From Raillietiella orientalis (lineage: Eukaryota): a stretch of 64,000 nucleotides of DNA. The notes below the pieces were generated by a model that was given only the letters and a program-made list of their open reading frames with translations, was not told the origin of the DNA and did not search any database. Of this stretch, positions 3,049 through 19,200 are shown piece after piece. Position 1 is the first letter of the stretch. The number at the start of each line of letters is the position of its first letter. The translations under genes and the position numbers were made by a program. Where the stretch lies: positions 310,001-374,000 of the forward strand of contig JAYWIR010000055.1 in the NCBI GenBank assembly GCA_036172245.1, written 5' to 3'.

Positions 3049-5381
3049 ATGGTTTTTGAAATGGACAGTGACAAGCTGAGAAAGAAATGCATGCTTTGGG
3101 AATTGGATGTAAATTCCTTTGACACTGAAGAAATTTCGTATGAAGAAGTTTACACTGCGGAAAAAAAGGGTAAAACCCAATGAATTACAGATGAATTTCA
3201 GGAACATTAATTTTTTATAGAGGAACCACTTCATGATTCTGAACAGTACTCTAAAGTTTGTGTATGTTGTGGAACAAATTTCAGTACTTTGGATGAGTGC
3301 CGAGAGCACTTCAAGTTAGACTGGCATAAGTATAATTTGAAACAATACTTGGCGGGGAAAAGTGAAATGACTGTAGAGGATTTTGCATGCATCAGCCCAG
3401 GTTCATTGGATTTATTTTCCTTGAAAGCAGTTTTCATGGTGAAACTTTTTTTGATGAGAAACTTCCCATTTCAGAAGCATTGTCTAGCATATCAGGATCA
3501 GGAGAATCTGAACCAGAAGTTGAAGTTTTAAAAACTGAAGTGCCTTCTTATCACAAATTAGGGAAAGTACACATAAACACAAAAGATGATGGTACGCTGG
3601 TGTTGCATAAGTGTTTGTTTAAAGTAAGAATTTTTGAGGATATTGATACATTATATGTACTTAGGGTGATTTAGATCTGCAACAGCTGGTGTCAAAAGTA
3701 CAGTGGGCTATACTTATGGCATCTGGAGGTCACTTTGCAGCTGCTGTCTTTCAAAGTAATTTTAACTTAATCTCACTATAAATCAAGTGTCTACTCAAGG
3801 ATGTGACATTTTATGCCATAAAACTTTTCACAGTTATACTGTGAGAGCTCGCCAAGGTGGCAGTCAGAGTCATCATGACAAAAAGAGTAGCATCAATCAG
3901 CCAAAATCTGCTGGAGCTAGTCTTAGACGATACAATGAGCAATCCTTTGTGCAGGTAAATTTTCGATTCATTGAAGATTATTAACCAAATTTGTGTGAAG
4001 CATGTACAAGAATTATTACATTCTTGGGAAGAGAAATTGAGCACTAGTGATTTCATATTTTATCGTGTTCCTGCTTCTCACAGAATGGTTTTCTTTGGTG
4101 GAAAAAAAGCCATCATTTCCATGAGGGATGACAGAGTCATTCAAATTCCCATTACAACACGGCGCCCAACCTTAAAGGAAGTAATAAGAGTTCACAATGA
4201 ATTAGCCACTGTAAAAGTCGCTACACATCCTAACACATTAGTTGATTGTGCATCCAACAGCCAGGTAAGGAGATGAATGCAATTGTTGTATGGATATCTT
4301 CAGTGTTAGACAGACTGTGGAAATGACTGCAAAGCATCATGAGATATGCCCATCCCCTAAAAAGCAAGTGCATAAATTTCGAAATCAACCAGACAAATGT
4401 AATACAGTGCCTTTGGTGCAAGTAGATGAAGTGGTAACTTCAGATAATTCAGGGAAAGCAGTGTTGAAAAAAACAAAAGCAAACAAAACTAGAGACATAT
4501 GTGCAGATGTGAAAGTTGGCAATGGGAATGAGAATCATCCAGATTCACTTTTTGGTCATGCTAAATCAGCAGTTGACAGTCTCACTGAAGAACAACAAAA
4601 GCATATCGACTTGTTGTATACTGCAAGTGTAGTAGCAGACCCTGTAGCTTTGAAAGCTGCAATAAAACAAATACCATGTCCAAGAGGATGTTGTAAAGAC
4701 AATCAGATTGAACAGTCATGTGCAAAGTTAGTGCTAATCAACATTCAGTTTGGTCACCTTAAAAACACTTTGTTGCATGTTGCAGCCAGACAAAGTGCAG
4801 ATGTAGTAAGGTGAGTCTGAGAGAGACACAGCCATTACTTACTTGTATTAGAGTTCTTCTGGACCATGGAGCAGATCCTTGCATTAAAAATAAAGATCAG
4901 TGCACACCTTATCAGGTGTGCACAGATCCTCACATTCGTAATGAATTTCGTCGATTCATGGCATTGCACCCACAGTTGCACAGTTACCAGCTTGCTGCAA
5001 TACCTTCTCCTCTCACTTCTGAAATGGAAGTCAGAAGGGCACAGAAAAATGCATCTCGAAAACGTATTCAAAAAAAAATGAAGAGAGAGAGAGAGAAAGA
5101 ACAGGCAATGCAGAATCATCAGCAGATGCTAGAAACTGAGAAATGTCTTCAGTTTCTGGCACTTTCACATGAAGAAAAGGTGAGTCGATTAACTGGCAAA
5201 CTGTCGAATTCTAATATTTCGATAGTGTTTGCTGGTGCAGCAGAAAAATGCTGATGCTGCGAATCGGTGTTTCCAGTGTGGAAAGCACTTTGGCCATTGT
5301 ACACCATTTAAATATGCTGACAACCAGTTGTGCAGCATTGCTTGTGTTAAGTTACATCGCCAAAAAAAGTCTAATCATTAG
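3049..5381 (+). CDS. ANKZF1: Ankyrin repeat and zinc finger peptidyl-tRNA hydrolase/tRNA endonuclease ANKZF1 (Vms1), ~646 aa; exons 3049-3169, 3221-3400, 3475-3623, 3665-3755, 3800-3954, 4001-4264, 4314-4810, 4852-5179, 5226-5381
   Basis: C2H2 zinc finger CVCC..REHFKLDWHKYNLK; LSSISGS; VLRF1 domain GGHFAAAVFQ..HKTFHSYTVRARQGGSQ..KSAGASLRRYNE; IPITTRRPTLKEV; ankyrin TLLHVAA..VLLDHGADP; C-terminal CFQCG..PFKY..CSIACV..HR. All 8 introns are GT-AG with consistent phases; spliced length 1941 nt. Start could alternatively be ATG 3061. Confidence 0.93.
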
Positions 5382-5388
5382 ACATTCT

Positions 5389-5394
5389 TTTATT
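5389..5394 (-). terminator. AATAAA poly(A) signal overlapping the PLEKHM1-like stop codon
   Basis: Minus strand reads AAA TAA AAG; the TAA stop (5392-5390) is part of AATAAA. Confidence 0.6.
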
Positions 5395-7756
5395 TTGAGG
5401 ACTTATACACATGGGAAGCCTTGCGTGCACATTTAGGGCAAGGGATCATTGAACAACTTTTGTGATATACAGACTTGCAATGGTGGCATTGTTGGGTATG
5501 CTCCAAATCAAATGGATACAAAACCTCGTCACCATGGCACGTCTCGCAAATAAATCCTTTCTGAGAACACAAAAAGCAATCGTAGACATGTGCCTGCATA
5601 CACTGGACAGCACTGTTAACTTCCCAGGCCAAAACTCCATTTGGTACCTTAAGAAGATCCTGCAATCCGATAATGAATGCCTGGGTCTATACTTTACACA
5701 TACTTACTGCAACAGAATACACATGGACATGTTCATAAAAATGCGACCCAAATGTTAGGGTTTCCTTTATGCACAAGGCACTTTTACTGTTGCACGTATG
5801 TATGTAAGCAACAAGTAGCATCAACTGAAAACGCAAGTTCTGCAGTTTGGCCAGTTCACTAACCATAAGGTACAGCACCGGATTGTCTCGATTAATATTT
5901 AACAAAGGTGCAAAGTGGATACTCTGTAAGAAAATCAAAATCTCGTGGGCAACAGGGTATTGACGGAAATCCCAATTGTGCAAAAGGCGTGATGGAATAA
6001 TGCTGTAAGCATGATTGTGACACTTTTTACAATAATAATGGCCATCATATGCACAGTAAATAGCCTGACCAAATGTTAGGCCAATTGCTTGATTACACTG
6101 CATGCACTGATACTGCTGAGAGTCAAGACCTCTATCATTCTGAATAGTAGTCAGAAATGATGAAAGTTCATCTTCCATGTTGCATACCTCAAAATCATCA
6201 TCATCCGTGGAACTTTTGCTACTGGGTTCTCTTTCATTCTGCAATGAACCAGTATGTTGTGATACAAGACTATTTTCATCCCCTAACAAACTCAGGGGCA
6301 GTATTCCAGGATCATTCCGATCCTGCAATGAACTAGACAGCAATATATCAAAACTACTTGAGTCTTGTAGTGATCTAGAAAGTGGCATGTCTAGGTTTGT
6401 ATCCTGCTCAGCAGATTCCCTTTTGCCTTTCAATGGATTAGAGAGTTGCACATCCAGATCACTACTTCCGTCTTGTAAAGAGTTAGAAAGTGACACCTGA
6501 GGATTCCTGGAATCTTGTGCATAGGATTGCCAATCACCTTTTAGCGAACTACACAGATGTATGCTAGAGGTATTCATGTTTGGAACTGAACTAGAGAACT
6601 GTATGCTGGATTCATTCCTGTCCTGTGTAATCTTGAAAAATTGCATGCTACCAATATTATATATGGAACTTGCTAGCTGTTGCATATTAACATCACTTCT
6701 GTCTTGTCCTTGTTTGTGCTTGAACAACAAAGTGCTAAAAGATTCGGTTAAAGGACATAACACGGAAGGACTATTCTTTACATCTGATGGTGTTTCTGGA
6801 AAGCACACACGTTCTGCATCATCTGCTGATTTCTCCAAAAGACCACTTTGATCTGCAAATTCCGAAGGAATCCGCAGATCCTCTGCATCTATTGATGTCC
6901 CAACATGCACTACTTTTGTAGGTTCCATTTTGCACATATGATCTTCATCAACATCCTTAACAGAGTTCTTCTGCATGCAGATTTTATCCAGTAATGATCC
7001 TGTGGGAGTCATCATAATTTTAAACGATCTTTCTGTACTGAGATTATAAATGGAGGAGCACAAACTGTGTAGATCACCATCACTTGACATGGAAGCAGAA
7101 CCAGTAACAGTATCTGGCAATGCTTCCTCTGCAATATAAACAGGTTCCAGTGTTTCAGAGGTCAGTAGGCCTGCCATTGATAGTGTAATAGAATTCCACT
7201 CATTGAGCAGAGTAACATTGCAGGCTAAATTAAATAGAACTGACTGCAGGCTTTGAACCATACCCAAGAGCACATCTTGGCATTCTGTGTCAATCAAGAA
7301 AGCACAATGCCAGTAACTATGTTGTATCAGCTTCTTATCACTCAGTAAACTATGAATACAACTGTATAGAAGACCTTGGTTGAGCGAAAGACGAAGCCAA
7401 CTTCTGCATCGCCCCACATCATTATTGATCTGAGTCATCTGATATATTTCTTCAATCATGGTACCATGCAAGCACTGCCGTAAAAGATACCAAAAATTCA
7501 AGGATGCGGATTTATTGGAAGACAAAGCCTGCAAAAGAGATGATGGTTTCAGCCCATGTAGTAAAGTAGCTTCTAAAACAGAACACAACTGAGTGCTATC
7601 TTCATTACTGATGATACATTTCATTTGCTCGTGAACATCCAGCACCATGTGCACTACATCTACTAAGCATTTTTTCAAGGCTTCCCGCTTTTGCATCAAG
7701 AAACTAAGCTGCACCTGTTTCTTACTTTGCGAGTGTTTGTACCAAGTGTTCAGCAT
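5390..7756 (-). CDS. PLEKHM1: PLEKHM1-like RUN and Rubicon-homology (RH) domain protein, ~772 aa; exons 7756-5708, 5659-5390
   Basis: N-terminal RUN domain ([34 protein letters not shown]); C-terminal RH zinc-binding domain ([77 protein letters not shown]); 48-nt GTAAGT..TGCAG intron at 5707-5660 joins the two ORFs in frame. Confidence 0.85.
5549..5554 (+). terminator. Candidate AATAAA poly(A) signal for ANKZF1, inside the antisense PLEKHM1-like CDS
   Basis: First AATAAA seen on the + strand after the ANKZF1 stop (5381). Confidence 0.45.
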
Positions 7757-7992
7757 GCCTGAACAACAGTTTCAAGAACTAATTCGATCTCTTTGGGTGC
7801 AAAATCGTTGGGATCATAAATTACACGAACTATAAGAGAACAACTAGGACAAGCTGCTATTTCTTCTCCAGCAGCCAATTCTGCACCAGTTATTTGGAAA
7901 CGATCTCCACAAGGGCATGGATAATAGTAAATGTCATCTTCCTCTTCATACTCAAAATCCTCAATTTCTACCTCATCATGAAACACAGCCAT
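7750..7992 (-). CDS. DPH3: Diphthamide biosynthesis protein 3 / Kti11 (CSL zinc finger), 80 aa, intronless
   Basis: [49 protein letters not shown]: near-identical to the metazoan DPH3 N-terminus with CPCG and CPSCSL motifs. Confidence 0.97.
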
Positions 7993-8656
7993 CTTGAGTC
8001 AAATGAATCAAACCATATGAATGCAACACCTTCAATGCTTCTTTTAACGCTACACCTTCACGAATTACTTTGTAATGTCCAGGGACAGAAAGATTAAGCA
8101 CAGTAGAACCAGCACGCAATTCATCACATGTACCTAATCTTCCTTGATCAAAAACATACGCAACTTCTGCATGAAGATCAGAAAACTCTTCAACAGTTAA
8201 AGGGCTCAACCCTTCACTGAGATTAGCACTTGTGAGTGCCAAAGGATTGTCACAAATATGACACACATTAACAATAAAGTCACACTTGGGTATTCTCACT
8301 CCTACTAACTTAAAGTTAGGGTTCAACAAGGGATTAAGAATTTTTGAGCGTTCAAACACAAGTGTATATGGACCTGGAAGCAAATCTCTAAGTATTTCAT
8401 CACAAACAGTCACACAACACCACTGATGGATCTCACTTATTGAGGATACACAGATGGATATAGGCTTATTGTAGGAACGTTTTTTGATGCTATACAACTG
8501 ACTAATAGATTTAGGTAGCTGAGCTAGAGTAGCAAAACCATATATTGTATCCGTGGGAACAGCAATTACTTCACCTCTCAAAAGAGCATGAACAGCCAAA
8601 CCAACTATTTTGTTATACGTAGGGCTTGTGACTGGGGGCACAGCAACTACAGTCAT
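7976..8656 (-). CDS. YRDC: Threonylcarbamoyl-AMP synthase YRDC/Sua5 (t6A37 tRNA modification), 226 aa, intronless
   Basis: [54 protein letters not shown] motifs of the YrdC/Sua5 family. Confidence 0.95.
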
Positions 8657-8666
8657 TAGTCATAAT

Positions 8667-9097
8667 TTATCCACGCCATCTATAGCCACAAGTTGGACTG
8701 CAACATTTATAAAAAGTTGTCATTGGTTCATCTGCAGAACGTGTTTGTAGCTGCATAAAATATGCTCTGGGATATTCACACTTAGGACAAGGTTCCTCAG
8801 TAGCATCTACGTTTTCCCAGGCAGCAGTACCACCTAGAACATCATCCACTTCCTAAAAGAAACAATTACTTGACTTTATGGCGTACACTGACATATAATA
8901 TTTGGTTAATTCACATACTGCTGAAAGCAATGGAAACAATAGACAAATAATTAAACCTTTAAGGCAGGATACTGTTTGCTGCTTATTTTTTGACAAATAT
9001 TGAAAATGTATGGACATGTGCTACAAGTAAATCGGAAGCCCTGAGAAGCTTCCTCAATTCCCAAGATGTTGGCACAATTGGGGCAAAACAACAGCAT
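8667..9097 (-). CDS. POLR3K: RNA polymerase III subunit RPC10/C11, 108 aa; exons 9097-8957, 8852-8667
   Basis: MLLFCPNC..FTCSTCPY..YPALK|EVDDVLGG.AAWENVD..CPKC..RAYFMQLQTRSADEPMTTFYKCC..CGYRWR; TFIIS-like RSADEP acidic hairpin; 104-nt GT-AG intron at 8956-8853. Confidence 0.97.
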
Positions 9098-9370
9098 AAG
9101 GTTTTTGCAGTTTCTCAACGCTACTTCCGCATCACAGCCACTTCTAAAACAAAGCTCAATCTTATTCATTGTATGCAACGTTTAACATTTAATGAACAAT
9201 CTAACAAACAGATAATTTTAAATCGAGTTCAAAACCCCTGTGGCACGAACGATCGCATCAACCTTTTTTTTTTTGTTTTTTCCAAAGAAAGGGAATAGAA
9301 AAAGGAATAGAAAGATGAACATCTGCGCACTAAGCGGAAAAAATAACTGAATAACAACAGCACGACTTAC

Positions 9371-9560
9371 ATTTAACTTGTACTAAACATACATGGACAA
9401 AAGTCAAACTAATACGCGCTTATCCAGGAAACTGATACTGCAATACCAATTTTAAAGGACACTCCTTCACCACGACGCTACATAGCGACGAACCAGCGAT
9501 GCGATTTCAGTGGGTGCACAACGTGAACGTTGCCAACTCACCTCAAAGAGAGTTCAACGA
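9371..9560 (-). promoter_or_regulatory. Putative non-coding first exon and promoter of the POLR3K-YRDC-DPH3-PLEKHM1 unit
   Basis: GTAAGT donor at 9370-9365 and TTTGTTTTAG acceptor ending at 9144 define a 227-nt 5'UTR intron; local return of CpG dinucleotides (~9230-9530) against the CpG-poor gene bodies. TSS position not determinable. Confidence 0.5.
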
Positions 9561-12399
9561 TTTGCACATAAAAATAAAATACATGCAAAAATATTTCATT
9601 TTTATGCAAATGCAGGGAACTTTTGCATGTTCATGTGCAAACAAGCTGTAAATATCATAGCATTATTCTCACTGTTTTGTTCACTTGGTAAAAATATAAG
9701 TGTTGTGATTCAATGATTTGAGAAACTTAATGATGGAACAGTAATTGGACACGGAACAGTTTTGCACAACGTGATAATTCAGTCAGTTACTAATCTATGT
9801 ATTTCCCTGGAAAAAAAAAAAGATAAGAATGCTCTTTGGTCTTCAAGTTGCATTTTCTCTCTCCTGCTGCTACTCCATAATGCTTCTGTTCAAAAAATTC
9901 CCAGCTATTTATTTCAAAATGACGTTATTATTTTGGTGAATAGGATTAATTTTCCAATAGCATGATTATCACCACTGGATCATGCACCTTTGACGTCTGA
10001 GCCATATACCGAATTTTGAGAGACGCCGCTACAACTTTGAAGCGCTTGCTCGTGTCGAGGCATAAGAGTCCCTTGAATCTCTGGACGTTCTGATAGGCGG
10101 AAGAAATGGAATCCTGGAGGGAGCGAGCTCCTTAGATGCTCGCGGAAGAGTCCCCTCCCGCCCTCGAGGGAAGCCTGGAGACACTGTGGCTTCACACGAC
10201 CGTACTTTCTCAGGACACTCTGGTGCCCGATCTGCACGGCTTCCGGATCACGACTCCGCCTGCTTCCTACCTGTTGCTGGAGGTCACCTGAGCAACACCG
10301 GGCGCACCCGATTCCCCGATCCATGACAGCGGGCTTACGTTACGCTTTCTACAGATGCGTGGCTGGAGATTCCCAACTGGATCAGCCGACCACCATCTGT
10401 CATCTCCCACGTGAGAAGAGAAAGAGCCAAGCGCCATGAATCCAAGGCAGGAAAGGCAAGACTGCTCCTTTCCTTCCTTTCTCCCTGAAATGAGCCTGCC
10501 GGATCCTCCGCTTCCCCGTGGTCTCGTAGACACCTCGGCGTCAAACCCTTCCTCTTCCAAAGACGAGATCGAAGTCCGTCTTGAAGGCTAGCACAAACAA
10601 ACACCGCATCCCTAGGACCGCATCTCTGGCCGTCCAGAGCTTCCTCGCAACGCCCTGCCGAGGCTTTGTAGGTGTCCCAGGCAAGCAAAGCGCAGGGCTC
10701 GTAGGAGCGGCTGCAAATCGCTCCTATCGCAAGCGGCGCTCGCGCCATCTCTGACGTGAAACGTGAAGCAGAGTCACTGGGAGGTTGTCACACGCAAGGC
10801 AGGAATCCCGTCTCCCGAGGGTGCGTGTGTACCTACCGGTCCAGAGCAGACGCAGCCTCTGCTGCTGCTGCTCCTCTACTTTCCTCCGTGCAGCGAGCGG
10901 AGGTTGCCGAGCACGAACGGGAAGTGCCCTCTCTCGAGCTGCTCTTACCATGCTTTGTGCAAGAGAGTCTTTGTGCAACACACTCAGTGAATGTGAAAAT
11001 ACATATCGATGATTAAGCATATGATCTTCAATCTGTATCCTTACACTTCTTAATATAATGTTGCAGATTGAAGGGCGTACGATGTGGATTCAGGTTATCT
11101 TCCTTTGAAAAGCTTGGGATTTATTTACCGAGTCAAGTGTGGCATGAGAAAAGGTCACTACCGTATAAAAGAATCCCCATATATGGCTTTCTATTTATTA
11201 TCGGAAATAAAGTAAGAAAAATTATATTGAGACTGGAGTCATACGATGGAAATTTATGCCCTTTCATTGTGACAATTTGAATTATGAGGTGGAGCGCTGG
11301 GGGAGAAAATAGAATGCTCTTGTATTTGCAAAAGGTTTTTTTTCCCAGCTGCAAAACGTCAGTAATTCCGTGTGCGTTACTGTCCCAACGTCCGTTATTT
11401 ACTAATGAAATAATCATAATTCTGTACACGGTTTCAGACTTCCATACCACAAATAGGTTTTTTTTATGTGACGTTTAATCCCTGTTGTTTGGTTACGAAA
11501 GAAAAGCCTCCATTTCATTTCTGGTTCCTTAGATGAGGAAAATAAAACTTGATGCTCTTAGGAGCTTGAGAACCGTGGCGAATGGCATCCAGGAAAAGGA
11601 GCATTTCACGCTGCTGAACAAAGTTGTAAATGTGTAGACCAGAAGATCAAAAGAAGAGCACAGAGGTTGGCCTCAACAGGACGCAGACACGCAGCCGCTG
11701 CGGTCACGCAGGTGAAAGCAGGTCTGCAAGAAAACGATGCCTTGCATTGTGGTCACATCAGAGAACAAAAAAAAAAAATGATCAACAGGGATGGCATGCA
11801 AAGCGGGCTGGAAATTTTTCTCCTTGCGATAACGAGGCAAATTCAGTAACAAATGATGACCTGATTTGTGAAGTATTTCGATGGGAATCCTTTGGGGTTC
11901 TTCTGTTTTCTCTGCTTTCCTTCCGGATGTTTTTTTTTTTTTGCTTGTTTGTTGGCTGGGCGGAGGGGGAGAGCTTCTCAAGGAGTAGAGAAAAACCGTC
12001 GCCTCCTTAGGAAAGGGGAAGGAAGCTCACAAAGCTCTTTAAACACTGTCCATGCCACCCGAGGATGCGTGTAACTTCAGCTTGGGGCAGCCCAGAGGCA
12101 CCATCCTATGAGGAAGACTCCTAAGAAAGTTTTGTAGGGAACGTGGAAAGGATCCGTTCCTTGCATCCTCCTCTGAAGAGAACCCCGGAGTAACGCTTCC
12201 CTATTTCACTGAAGGGCGCTCCCAGAAGGGAGCGGAGTGCGCTTTTACGCCCTGCAGAGGCATCCTCCCGAGGGAGTATCAACCAGCTCCATGGTAACGG
12301 GTTCATTTTCAGAAACGGAGGGGACCCCAAAGGGAACCGACTCCTTGATTCCTGGAAGGACTTCCAGTCTCGATAGGTCTGCAGGAGCATTCGGTTTCC

Positions 12400-15278: not shown

Positions 15279-16289
15279 TTATTCTTCGGGTGCCAACTCT
15301 TCCTCTTTGTTCACGGCGGTGTCTTTCCCTTCGCTCTTGATGGCTTCCTCCTTGACGCTTTCAGGAACTTCTTCTTTCGGTTTGGAGATGACCGTCGTCA
15401 CCTCCACCGCCTTCATCCAGTCGTGCTTCAGCACGAGTTCCAAGGTGATTCGTTTCGTCACGTCCGGCTCCAACATGGCCATGATCATCCTCTTGAGTTC
15501 GTTGCTCAGCCTGTCGCGCACGCGGGGCCGGAAGGACCAGCTCTTACTCAGCTGGTCCTTGAGCATCCTCTTGAGGTTGGAGTCGTTGAAAGGCATGGCG
15601 GCGTTCACCATGATGAACAGGATGATCCCCGTGGACCAGATGTCGGCCATCTTCGGGTTGTACGGCGAGCCGCGCACGACCTCCGGGGCGGCGTAGGCCG
15701 CGGACCCACAGTAGGTTTCGCTGAGCACCCGCTTCCCGTCCTTGTCCGTGCACATGCGCGCGAAGCCGAAGTCCGCCACCTTGATGTTCAGGTTCTTCGT
15801 GAGGAGGATGTTCTCGCATTTGAGGTCGCGGTGGGCGATGTCCTTCTGGTGGAGGTACTGCAGCGCGGACGACAGCTGCCTGAACCACACCTTGCTCTGC
15901 AGCTCCGGGATGGCGCCGTTGCCCTTGATATAGTCCAGCAGGTCGCCCCCTTCCGCGACCTGCATGAAGATGTAGACCTTGTCCTGCCTCTCCAGGATGC
16001 TGTGCACGCGGATGATGTGCGTGTGGTCGAGGGCCATAATGATTTCCAGCTCCCGGGGGAAGAACTTTGTGACGAAATCCTCGGGCGCCTTGCTGCGGTC
16101 CACGATCTTGCACGCCAGTTTCTCCCGCCTGCCGCCCACCACGTATTCCGCCATCCGCACCTTGGCGTATGACCCCTGACCGAGTTTCTTCCCGAGGACA
16201 TAACCTTTCTTGTCGAGTGCCCTTTCTTCGCTAGTGGGTAAGGTAAGAGCCATAGCAGACAGGCAGAGGGCGAAGAGTGTAGGATGCAT
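15279..16289 (-). CDS. Testis-specific serine/threonine kinase (TSSK family), intronless; start may be the second ATG at 16253
   Basis: Complete kinase domain LGQGSYAKV, ACKIVDRSKAPEDFVTKFFPRELEI (TSSK signature), HRDLKCENILL, DFGFAR, LSETYCGSAAYAAPEV, ADIWS.GIILFIMV..MPF; strongly GC3-biased codons; stop TAA lies in AATAAA (15283-15278). Confidence 0.93.
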   Translation of the reverse strand: MHPTLFALCLSAMALTLPTSEERALDKKGYVLGKKLGQGSYAKVRMAEYVVGGRREKLACKIVDRSKAPEDFVTKFFPRELEIIMALDHTHIIRVHSILERQDKVYIFMQVAEGGDLLDYIKGNGAIPELQSKVWFRQLSSALQYLHQKDIAHRDLKCENILLTKNLNIKVADFGFARMCTDKDGKRVLSETYCGSAAYAAPEVVRGSPYNPKMADIWSTGIILFIMVNAAMPFNDSNLKRMLKDQLSKSWSFRPRVRDRLSNELKRMIMAMLEPDVTKRITLELVLKHDWMKAVEVTTVISKPKEEVPESVKEEAIKSEGKDTAVNKEEELAPEE

Positions 16290-19200
16290 GGATCATCCTA
16301 GGCGGGAATTTTGCTTTTCATCCATATTTACTGGGAGTTCAAAAATGACGAGTGCGGCAGACCGAGAAAAAAAAAAGATAAGGCAAGACAGGGGTCGTTT
16401 CCACGGTTACTCCCTTTGCGGATCTGCTTCTTTCGTCTCTGCGAGGCTGGCTGGTGGCGGCGGGACGGAGGGGCGGACCGGAACTGCGCCCAGGACGAGG
16501 GCGTCTTCGCACGGGAAGCAGCGGTCTCGACAGATCGTGGTGGCAGCCCCGACTTCGGAGCTCCTTTGTCTTTTGTCCAGCAGCCGAATCTTTGCCGTGG
16601 GCATCTCCCGGATTTCTGCTGCCGGTCCCTTCACCGCCATTCCCCGGGGACCAAATCTCGAGCGAGACCGGCGGCCGCCGTCGGGCAAGCGAGGCAAATG
16701 GGGGGAACGGGAAGGCTCGCGGAAATTCCCGAGCAGGGAACGGAGGAGGCCGTGCGAGACTGCTCGGACTTTCAAGGGGAGCCGCGAAAGTTACGGTGAT
16801 CCCTGCAGCCGTGGGGTTGCTGGAAATTTCGCTCCCCTCCCCATTCGTTCGGAATCTGCCAGGTCAAATCCCTTCAGCCCCACAGCCTCCGCTCGCCGTT
16901 CCTTCTCGTCTTCTCGAAGGATTTCATGCTGCGAGCGTGTGCGCTGCCTCGAATCCTTCGATCCCTTCCCAGGCGCCCTTCCCCCCTCCCTCCTCGCCCC
17001 GATCCCATGATCTCTCTGGTCTCCAGATTGAGATTTCCGCTTTTCTCCCTGTTGAATGTCATCCGATGAATTCTCTGCTCCTTCCTTGCTGGAGCGTTTC
17101 CGTTTACCTCTCTCCCCCCCCCCCCCTGTTGTTGCTGCTTTCCCCTCCCCCCTTCTCCTTCTTTCACTTGGAGCATTCTATTTGTCATTTTCAAAACCGA
17201 TAAATCTTTTGTTTTTTGTTCTTTGTTTTGTTTTTGTTTTTTTTTTGGGGGGGGGGGGGGGAAATAACCTCTCGGGTTTTCCAGAAACAGTGTGCTGCTT
17301 TTCCGCAAACAGAAGCTGCGGTTTCCCAAAGGCACAGCTAAAAGATTTTCGAAAATTATTTTTTAATTGGGCGTTTTTTGTGGCTTCTAAAAAAAAAAAA
17401 GAAAAAAAAAGAAAAAAGGGAGTCATCTTCCGGCCTGGGCAATAGAAAGTCGCGTTTTTCCGAATGCGCAGCCCCTCCACCGGATCTCCACGAGCTTAAT
17501 CTTCCGCTTTGCAAAAATGCAACCTTTCGTTGCCCCCCCCCCCCTCCCCACCCCCCGAATGCAGGGCGCTGCTCTTTTCCTTTTCCTCTTAAAAAAAAAA
17601 GGCTCTCTGCCGTTGGAAAACGAATCGGCTAATTTTACGAGTTGGGGAAGTCGCGCTGCGAGGGGAGGCTCCAAGAACTCTGTGTGCCCTCGTCCAGCGT
17701 TGCTGAGTGGGGGAGCTCGCCCGGAAGTGAGGGGGTGTCCCCGAGGATGCGCTGCCCGAAGGGGCTGCCGGAAATCCGATCCGGGGTCCGCTCGACGGGC
17801 CCGCGCAGAAAGGAGGGGCAGGAGGCGCTGGCGAAGCAGGGGCGCCGCCAGCTTTGTTTTACGACCGGGAACGCTCCAGGAGGAATGGGTCGCGTCCGAA
17901 CGTGCGGAGAGGGCCGTCCTCGGAAACTTCCCCTCCGCTGCCGAAGCCCTGCCCCGTCCCGGGCTTTCCGCCGAGGCGCGGGTCGCCGGGACAGCGCTTC
18001 CGCGGGGCCGTCCATCCGTCTCGATCCCGCAGGAACCGCGGATGCTTAATTGCCTGCCGCCGGCGCCCTGACGTCCCTCGGCGCCCCCTCCCCCCAGGGC
18101 TGGCTGGAGCACGTCTTGAGGCAGGCGTCTTGTCCCGGAGCAGAGCGTGTTTACCCCCCCCCCCCCAGCTGTCCAGCCGGGCCGCGGAAGAGTTCGCGTG
18201 CTGTTTGTTTTTCTTGCCGCCGCCTGATGGAACGCGTTCGTCGAGTTGGCAGAGGGAAAGTTGGCCTCCCCCTCCTCCCTCCCTGCTGGAGAAGAATAAA
18301 TCTTCCCGCAAGGAGCCCTCGATGGCACGGGCGGATCGGGACTCCGGAAGCTCGCTGACGATTCCCTCCGCCAGAAGAATCAATAAAACGTGTGCCGTTT
18401 CGTATAGGTTTCTCAACACGTACAAGAAGGAATCGTAGGTCGCCGCCGTGCAAAGAGGCCGCCGCGCGCTTCGCAACGAAAGTTAAGTTCATTACGCGGT
18501 CGTCGGCGCTCACGGCTGGACACTGCCGGCGACCCGAATGAATTATAACGGAAAGACGATGTAGCATTACAGGAAATAGTGAGAGTAAAAGATTTAAGGG
18601 AGGGAAGGGAAAGAGATAAATGGCAGTTGAAAAGCACCCATAAATTACAGGCAGCAAGTGAATCACGTGGATGGTTCCCCCCCCCCTCCCCCTCCCCTAT
18701 AGGCCTGAAATTTACATCCGGTACGCAACGCCGCCGCCATTGTTTGTTTCCGTGGCGATCAAGTCAGGTAAGTGTTCCCAAGTTCACCAAATGCAAACGG
18801 CACCGACAGCGGTGAAAATTGACGGTGGAATGTCATTTGTGGTGGCACCTGCAAAGTAAACATGAAAATAGGCTAACAGTGAAATAAAAACGTAACCCAG
18901 GGAGAGATAGGGGCAAATGCGATCCGCGGCGTGGGAAGCAACCCGAACAGATGCGAATTCCGGAAGATTGATGCTTGAAGAATGTTTTTTGCTTTTGTTT
19001 TGTTTCCTAAGGAAACCGAAATTCGGCCGAAATCGAAACCTTTTGGAAGGGCACGCAATAATTGCCATTCTTAATCTTGGCCATCATCATCTAGCTGAGG
19101 TGTTGTTGACGTGGTCGCAGACAATAATAATTTGTCAAGAGCTCAGCTCGGCAATCTTTTTCGTGCAGAGAACAATGCATGACGCATCCGCAAAAACTTT

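Follow-up and report, generated by a model that had tools for sequence, protein, structure and literature searches.

A 64,000-nt window of Raillietiella orientalis DNA (positions 310,001 to 374,000 of contig JAYWIR010000055.1, assembly GCA_036172245.1) carries on its minus strand, between 9097 and 5390, a chain of four unrelated and intact housekeeping genes arranged head-to-tail. These are POLR3K, YRDC, DPH3 and a PLEKHM1-like gene encoding a RUN and a Rubicon-homology (RH) domain, which is referred to below as RUN/RH. Judged from the sequence and from related loci, the chain would yield a single polycistronic mature mRNA, a reading to which we assign a probability of about 60%. The chain is an expanded version of a multi-gene messenger known in fruit flies and does not represent a new kind of animal operon.

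Every open reading frame (ORF) of the chain has a strong family match, so that chance occurrence of ORFs is not at issue, and the description given in the initial annotation, four intact and unrelated genes lying head-to-tail on the minus strand, held for all four (Table 1). The POLR3K product, of 108 aa, contains both an RPB9-type N-ribbon and a TFIIS-type C-ribbon. Its second exon matched the human Pol III subunit that is deposited as RPC10 over residues 48-107, with an E value of 2.4e-34, while the matches to the paralogues RPB9 (1.8e-08) and RPA12 (4.9e-08) were much weaker. The intron after residue 47 occupies a position that is likewise interrupted in six related loci (L025, L035, L043, L044, L066 and L069) from the set of 80 described below. 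An in-frame ATG is present upstream of the POLR3K start, at 9169, and the frame is free of stops from there down to 9097. If inside the mRNA, this ATG would give POLR3K 24 extra residues that are absent from its relatives; transcription may therefore start between 9169 and 9097, or the segment may be spliced out.

The YrdC profile was covered by the YRDC product at positions 2-178 of 178, the invariant columns of the YRDC protein alignment (A1) were retained, and identity to metazoan YRDC was 52-55% and about equal across many phyla among the matches listed. DPH3 matched human DPH3 (2jr7) with an E value of 3.1e-28, residue 1 being aligned to residue 1 and the first 13 residues being identical, and thus the ATG inside YRDC is the conserved DPH3 start. 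For the RUN/RH product, of 772 aa, the best solved match of the RUN domain was that of PLEKHM1 (8jc5, 1.5e-25) and the C-terminus matched the RH domain of Rubicon (6wcw, 7.7e-16); among 8000 candidates, at least three protein matches were found, all of them to mollusc proteins. PLEKHM1 has a pair of PH domains in its middle part. No PH domain was detected by Pfam in the RUN/RH protein at E <= 0.01, and its middle is of low complexity. Thus while the RUN domain is closest to PLEKHM1 and to that extent justifies the label 'PLEKHM1-like', the PH domains that mark PLEKHM1 were undetected.

The frames of neighbouring genes nearly touch or overlap, with stop-to-start distances of +10, -17 and -7 nt, exactly as had been claimed for the three junctions. 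The tail of YRDC that lies within the DPH3 overlap falls outside the conserved part of alignment A1, and a W near the N-terminus of RUN/RH aligns by eye with the MW start of this protein in four related loci (L006, L013, L016 and L020). Canonical polyadenylation (poly(A)) hexamers are scarce on the minus strand of 5200-9800, where only three were found: ATTAAA at 9193, upstream of POLR3K; AATAAA at 7516, within the RUN/RH coding sequence (CDS); and AATAAA at 5394-5389, the last of which had already been placed on the final stop by the initial annotation. In the same interval, neither AATAAA nor ATTAAA was found at or after the stops of POLR3K, YRDC and DPH3.

Like the lack of internal hexamers and the AATAAA on the last stop, the distribution of CpG dinucleotides argues, indirectly, for a single transcription unit. 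The ratio of observed to expected CpG (CpG o/e) is 0.08-0.57 throughout 3100-9100 and rises to 1.05-1.37 only at 9200-9700 and at 1800-2900, the latter patch lying upstream of a convergent ANKZF1-like gene. Depletion is unbroken from 9100 to 5390, and the segment 9200-9700 is the sole undepleted patch upstream of the chain; the initial annotation had likewise seen only one upstream CpG-rich patch, and none lies inside the chain. In animals that methylate gene bodies, CpG depletion marks transcribed bodies and undepleted CpG marks unmethylated promoters, and the pattern in the window fits one promoter for the entire chain. Depletion of both gene bodies (3100-9100, with o/e down to 0.08) also implies germline DNA methylation, unlike in Drosophila.

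The YRDC alignment A1 was scanned against metagenome contigs, yielding 80 loci. POLR3K was found directly upstream of YRDC, on the same strand, in 21 of them, representing about ten well-separated lineages on a YRDC tree (FastTree) whose deep nodes are unresolved. The distances from the POLR3K stop to the YRDC ATG in these relatives were -13, -13, 0, 0, 4, 5, 8, 39, 44, 45, 77, 137, 147, 150, 157 and 1060 nt, where the value of 5 nt stands for one clade of six loci, taking their common ATG; the spacer of 83 nt in L079 probably arises artefactually, from a frame that is broken. A RUN/RH gene followed YRDC in nine of the 21 (L006, L013, L016, L020, L021, L027, L043, L044 and L079), at spacings of -20, 20, 33, 60, 94, 127, 148, 148 and 161 nt. 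These nine loci share with the window three of the four genes, their order and their strand, and have short or negative spacers, but all are without DPH3, a search of the full set of 80 at E <= 1e-3 having revealed no copy of it. Since DPH3 was seen between YRDC and RUN/RH only in the window and the other three genes recur, the window can be read as a conserved POLR3K-YRDC-RUN/RH tricistron with DPH3 in its second spacer, DPH3 having apparently been either gained in the window or lost in the other loci. That the overlapped YRDC tail is not conserved would agree with displacement of the YRDC stop upon the arrival of DPH3. Comparison shows that the POLR3K-YRDC core is old and that the unit extends beyond the fly pair described below and predates it, and the order POLR3K-YRDC-RUN/RH recurs in several separate lineages. 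A literature search on YRDC, POLR3K and multi-ORF mRNAs found no description of the wider three-gene unit, and the conserved third cistron (RUN/RH) and the lineage-specific fourth (DPH3) seem to be new.

One of the nine loci probably offers a view of a processed transcript. In L016 (3541 nt) the POLR3K, YRDC and RUN/RH ORFs are all uninterrupted, whereas its clade-mates L013 and L020 have introns within RUN/RH. The members of the 90% cluster of the L016 RUN/RH protein are pieces of 354, 88 and 158 aa from contigs of up to 12,007 nt, and 12,007 nt is also the longest-contig value listed for the L016 YRDC and POLR3K proteins. The combination of uninterrupted ORFs, intron-bearing clade-mates and fragmented cluster members indicates that L016 is probably a spliced tricistronic RNA.

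The third position is not always taken by RUN/RH. An alternative third gene, encoding a protein with DUF4807 and CYTH domains, was found in L017 and L033, and in L069 it lies 4 kb downstream. In L017 (408-1187 and 1184 onward) the POLR3K stop and YRDC start abut as TAAATG, and the ATG of the DUF4807+CYTH-related ORF, the true start of which is uncertain, overlaps the YRDC stop as ATGA, making L017 a possible tricistron with two zero-distance junctions. POLR3K exon 2 and YRDC occur twice in tandem in L042 (17-2050 of a 2.2-kb contig), the second YRDC being in two pieces, which suggests a local duplication of the dicistronic unit.

The first junction of the chain has a published counterpart in Drosophila melanogaster, where CG33785 (Polr3K) and CG33786 form a dicistronic pair, which appears as CG33005ORFA/ORFB in the original list of Misra et al. 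(Hayden & Bosco 2008, PMC2276209). Its upstream ORF, of 108 aa, carries a 'transcription' domain and its main ORF a 'translation' domain, and the pair is conserved as far as a Bombyx expressed sequence tag (PMC2276209). CG33786 has been named Tcs2, the fly YRDC (PMC5372737), and the FlyBase 'Rule-Benders' supplement places CG33785 and CG33786 at one location, with the entries 'all di/polycistronic' and 'OVERLAP 1 nt' (PMC4528330). By the 108-aa length, family and description, POLR3K-YRDC is assigned as orthologous to this pair. The first two cistrons and their order are thus alike in fly and window, the upstream ORF measures 108 aa in both, and stop and start nearly touch (a 1-nt overlap in the fly, a 10-nt gap in the window). 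In contrast, however, the fly pair is annotated as dicistronic, with all transcripts polycistronic, while the window chain continues with DPH3 and RUN/RH across overlaps of 17 and 7 nt. Neither CG6613, the fly PLEKHM1 orthologue, nor Dph3 was found beside CG33786 in the 6 FlyBase supplementary files searched, nor do papers dealing with CG6613 state where it maps.

The wider class to which the fly pair belongs is well catalogued. FlyBase lists 159 dicistronic pairs, 7 tricistronic and 2 tetracistronic loci, and the stop-to-start distances in fly loci without monocistronic alternatives run from -34 to +319 nt (PMC4528330), a range that contains all three junctions of the window. The four Pfam-supported ORFs are complete same-strand CDSs that abut or slightly overlap, and in this respect they agree with the FlyBase term gene_with_polycistronic_transcript; for a processed mRNA spanning all cistrons, which the term also implies, the support from relatives and from signals in the sequence is indirect. 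Fly tri- and tetracistronic loci likewise place several unrelated complete CDSs on one processed mRNA, with distances from small overlaps to a few hundred nt, although tetracistronic loci number only two in that catalogue, against the four-ORF chain seen here. Because the core of the chain has been published as a fly gene and belongs to a class that is already catalogued, it was not upheld as a novel animal operon; the framing as an exceptional 'operon in an animal genome' was an overstatement, as slightly overlapping polycistronic mRNAs are a known Drosophila class and the first junction had already been published.

For the window itself, we propose that a single promoter, which probably lies within the CpG-undepleted patch (9200-9700), would give rise to one pre-mRNA. 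This transcript would lose two short introns and acquire its one poly(A) tail at the AATAAA that covers the final stop, to leave a mature mRNA with four complete frames, POLR3K, YRDC, DPH3 and the PLEKHM1-like RUN/RH. Given that gene order and tight spacing recur in many lineages, shared transcription is a simpler explanation than separate genes. The tri- or tetracistronic unit put forward in the initial annotation therefore stands as the best-supported reading, on the strength of the absent internal hexamers, the one CpG patch, the recurrent order and the fly dicistron, all of which bear on it indirectly. A retrocopy of a mature mRNA was rejected, as two introns are retained, one of them at a conserved position.

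A messenger of this kind poses the question of how the downstream frames are translated. The YRDC, DPH3 and RUN/RH starts are preceded by 11, 10 and 7 ATGs, respectively, which rules out leaky scanning, the route that the initial annotation had also thought unlikely. A polyprotein, which the initial annotation had also dismissed, and a frameshift fusion were rejected as well, since a conserved start is present in every ORF and the DPH3 alignment begins at residue 1. With leaky scanning excluded, termination-coupled reinitiation is proposed, whereby ribosomes ending one frame would restart at a start codon within 17 nt of the stop, serially at three junctions. Such coupling is suggested by the closeness of each start to the preceding stop, a distance held to ~13 nt or less in the fly and in about half of the lineages related to the window; on the assumption of a polycistronic mRNA we regard it as a tentative proposal, a little short of an even chance. 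In RNA viruses a restart codon may be positioned a few nt away from the stop codon or as much as 29 nt upstream (PMC3542737), and the window junctions, at +10, -17 and -7 nt, have starts in the same proximity to the stop. The start near the preceding stop is thus shared with viral termination-reinitiation as seen in caliciviruses, influenza B BM2, RSV M2-2 and victoriviruses, but the viral cases rely on upstream RNA elements such as UGGGA-containing TURBS, in contrast to the window junctions, which are without UGGGA at 40-90 nt. In fly polycistrons, downstream translation has been ascribed to internal entry, resumed scanning 'or some other mechanism' (PMC4528330). Green algae have conserved multi-ORF nuclear mRNAs without trans-splicing, for which leaky scanning has been reported (PMC7896298, PMC11892635); the numbers of ATGs before the downstream starts set the window chain apart from these.

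Several points weigh against a single messenger read by serial restarts. Promoters inside the chain could be poor in CpG and poly(A) signals can be non-canonical, the ATG at 9169 leaves the 5' end of the first cistron uncertain, and the weak grouping of the window YRDC with copepod sequences bearing a spliced leader (SL), taken up below, leaves some room for trans-splicing. Reinitiation after long ORFs is normally inefficient in eukaryotes, and the ORFs in question have 108, 226 and 80 codons. UGGGA, the viral helper motif complementary to 18S rRNA helix 26, was found 40-90 nt upstream of the stop at 0 of 3 junctions, and the only TGGGA nearby lies 150 nt before the POLR3K stop. POLR3K-YRDC spacers of 40-157 nt in several lineages further indicate that tight coupling is not universal. 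Given these spacers and the absence of UGGGA, reinitiation is a step that we infer.

Rather than one transcription unit, the chain could comprise four overlapping monocistronic genes, each with a promoter inside the preceding CDS and a non-canonical poly(A) site inside the next gene, as is known from very compact genomes. The genome is indeed locally very compact: the stop of the convergent ANKZF1-like gene lies 8 nt from that of the chain, and the first canonical plus-strand AATAAA available to that gene, at 5549, is inside a RUN/RH coding exon. Some fly polycistronic loci are also recorded by FlyBase as producing monocistronic alternatives (PMC4528330). However, there is no CpG-undepleted patch within the chain, canonical poly(A) hexamers were not found near the internal stops, the fly orthologue pair is without a monocistronic alternative, and order and tight spacing have been retained across many lineages. 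Separate overlapping genes are thus unlikely, and the single polycistronic mRNA is retained as the preferred reading.

An SL operon, in which the precursor is cut into separate mRNAs and a trans-spliced leader is added at an AG just before each downstream ATG, accounts for the same gene order in a different way. Nematode and tunicate SL operons give separate mature mRNAs and require a 3'-end signal for each upstream gene. They resemble the chain in having head-to-tail housekeeping genes on one strand behind one promoter, but differ from it in that the window frames overlap and internal poly(A) hexamers are absent. An AG does directly precede two of the starts, as ttgactcaAG followed by ATGG at DPH3 and as ctgttgttcAG followed by gcATG at RUN/RH, and these contexts resemble some cis acceptors of the neighbouring gene, for example ctactcaag before G. 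However, an AG before an ATG also fits an ordinary start-codon context and is weak evidence. Further, the chain has neither an intercistronic region nor a poly(A) hexamer for the upstream genes, as an SL operon would require, and the overlap of the ORFs makes the processing events mutually exclusive, since a given precursor could release only one of two adjacent mRNAs, upstream or downstream, in intact form.

The related sequences bear on trans-splicing from both sides. Four related YRDC contigs begin with a shared leader (L001 1-40, L003 1-40, L005 1-35 and L008 1-25) that matches the spliced leader primers given for calanoid copepods by Yang et al. (2015, PMC4664967), and the window YRDC was placed beside these SL-bearing contigs (FastTree, SH-like support 84), a grouping that is weakly supported. 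The copepod SL motif is absent from the window, where an SL gene need not be located. In three of the four (L001, L003 and L005), a DUF4807+CYTH ORF comes after YRDC within a single SL-capped transcript, so that even in SL-bearing copepods YRDC and the next ORF remain on one mature transcript; these contigs are dicistronic mature mRNAs in a trans-splicing lineage. The Drosophila orthologue, too, is a mature dicistronic mRNA. We therefore consider processing of the chain as an SL operon quite improbable, and an unprocessed polycistronic mRNA remains preferred. The second ORF of L001 has its first ATG 61 nt inside YRDC.

POLR3K is a subunit of Pol III, YRDC is an enzyme of t6A37 synthesis, and Dph3/Kti11 serves both diphthamide synthesis and Elongator-dependent tRNA modification. 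As three of the four products thus act in tRNA supply or translation, their co-expression from one messenger would make sense. It could be envisaged that an ancient arthropod tricistron, POLR3K-YRDC-PLEKHM1-like, captured DPH3 in its second spacer and is now read by three serial restarts after long reading frames, two of which step back 7-17 nt, with no viral helper motif. We hold this complete scenario to be doubtful; if true, an animal nucleus would harbour a translationally coupled operon of bacterial style, and a coherent one in function. More generally, dense multi-gene loci with overlapping frames in arthropod-like genomes are not necessarily operon systems of a new kind. Lineages differ in their extra cistrons, namely RUN/RH, the DUF4807+CYTH protein and, in the window, DPH3, and the series of junctions from -25 to +160 nt makes a natural test set for ribosome access to downstream frames. 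Where gene prediction admits a single CDS per transcript, polycistronic genes will be missed or fused. Among the species-named hits in the best 120 YRDC matches listed, insect and crustacean YRDC was absent, while chelicerates and a tardigrade were present; the missing sequences may be more divergent, or may have been overlooked by prediction of this kind.

Table 1. Coordinates of the four-gene chain, its junctions and signals, and the neighbouring genes in the window (E values from Pfam)
Feature	Position	Strand	Remarks
CpG-undepleted patch	9200..9700	-	putative promoter / 5' non-coding region; CpG o/e 1.05-1.37
POLR3K exon 1	8957..9097	-	47 aa, N-terminus MLLFCP; Zn_ribbon_RPB9 1.2e-07
POLR3K intron	8853..8956	-	GT..AG, 104 nt, after residue 47
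POLR3K exon 2	8667..8852	-	61 aa; stop TAA 8669-8667; Zn_ribbon_TFIIS 2.5e-19
POLR3K-YRDC spacer	8657..8666	-	10 nt, POLR3K stop to YRDC ATG
YRDC (threonylcarbamoyl-AMP synthase)	7976..8656	-	226 aa, intronless; Sua5_yciO_yrdC 1.5e-38
YRDC-DPH3 overlap	7976..7992	-	17 nt, different frames
DPH3 / KTI11	7750..7992	-	80 aa, intronless; Zn_ribbon_CSL 1.4e-25, CSL zinc finger with four cysteines
DPH3-RUN/RH overlap	7750..7756	-	7 nt, ATGCTGA
PLEKHM1-like RUN/RH exon 1	5708..7756	-	683 aa; RUN 4.3e-19, RH_dom 1.7e-29
RUN/RH intron	5660..5707	-	GTAAGT..AG, 48 nt; exon 1 ends in phase 0, frame runs on into RH domain
RUN/RH exon 2 and stop	5390..5659	-	89 aa; RH_dom 4e-18 on 5390-5599
AATAAA poly(A) hexamer	5389..5394	-	covers last stop codon of chain
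ANKZF1/Vms1-like gene	3061..5381	+	multi-exon, convergent, outside chain; VLRF1 pieces 6e-20, 3.1e-21; VATC 3.1e-07
TSSK-type (testis-specific serine kinase) gene	15282..16292	-	intronless; GC3 0.85, CpG o/e 0.94

Outside the chain, the composition of the window changes markedly. The GC content is 35-40% up to ~9980, then mixed, and 58-70% from ~12 kb to the window end, with alternations at about 9980, 10950 and 11960. The GC-rich part, of ~50 kb, has a CpG o/e of 0.95 and no codon periodicity, its long ORFs occurring by chance only; 11 of 12 of those tested were without a Pfam match. The only coding signal in this part is a TSSK-type kinase, whose closest relatives are pancrustacean, in ostracods (67-68%), then in springtails and insects; the DNA would accordingly be that of an animal, probably a pancrustacean arthropod. 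A bacterial contaminant was rejected as the source of the GC-rich part, since its ORFs lack Pfam matches and codon periodicity and its one real gene is an animal kinase. Candidate causes of the GC-rich block are isochore-like heterogeneity, biased gene conversion or mis-assembly.

This heterogeneity raises the question of whether the chain itself is an artefact or a dead locus, that is, an assembly chimera or collapse, or a non-functional copy without consequence for expression. The composition changes sharply, codon usage differs strongly between the chain (GC3 0.27-0.37) and the kinase (0.85), and the best matches of the two parts of the window point to different animal groups. Against this, none of the four frames is broken, and their starts, domains and intron positions are conserved; the gene order was found independently in 21 other loci; and the gene-body CpG depletion fits a long-expressed, germline-methylated gene. 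The three or more alternations between 9980 and 11960 are unlike a single chimeric joint, and the chain lies wholly in one composition block, ~900 nt from the nearest switch, so that even a chimeric assembly would leave the four-gene arrangement unaffected. An artefact or dead locus is thus highly improbable, and the chain is taken as a genuine set of genes.

Rfam and tRNA scans of the window gave no matches, and no repeats of >=60 nt were found in it, tandem repeats being short simple ones only. The ANKZF1-like gene that converges on the chain has introns of 40-75 nt. From the position of its hexamer at 5549, the transcripts of this gene and of the chain probably overlap in antisense by well over 100 nt.

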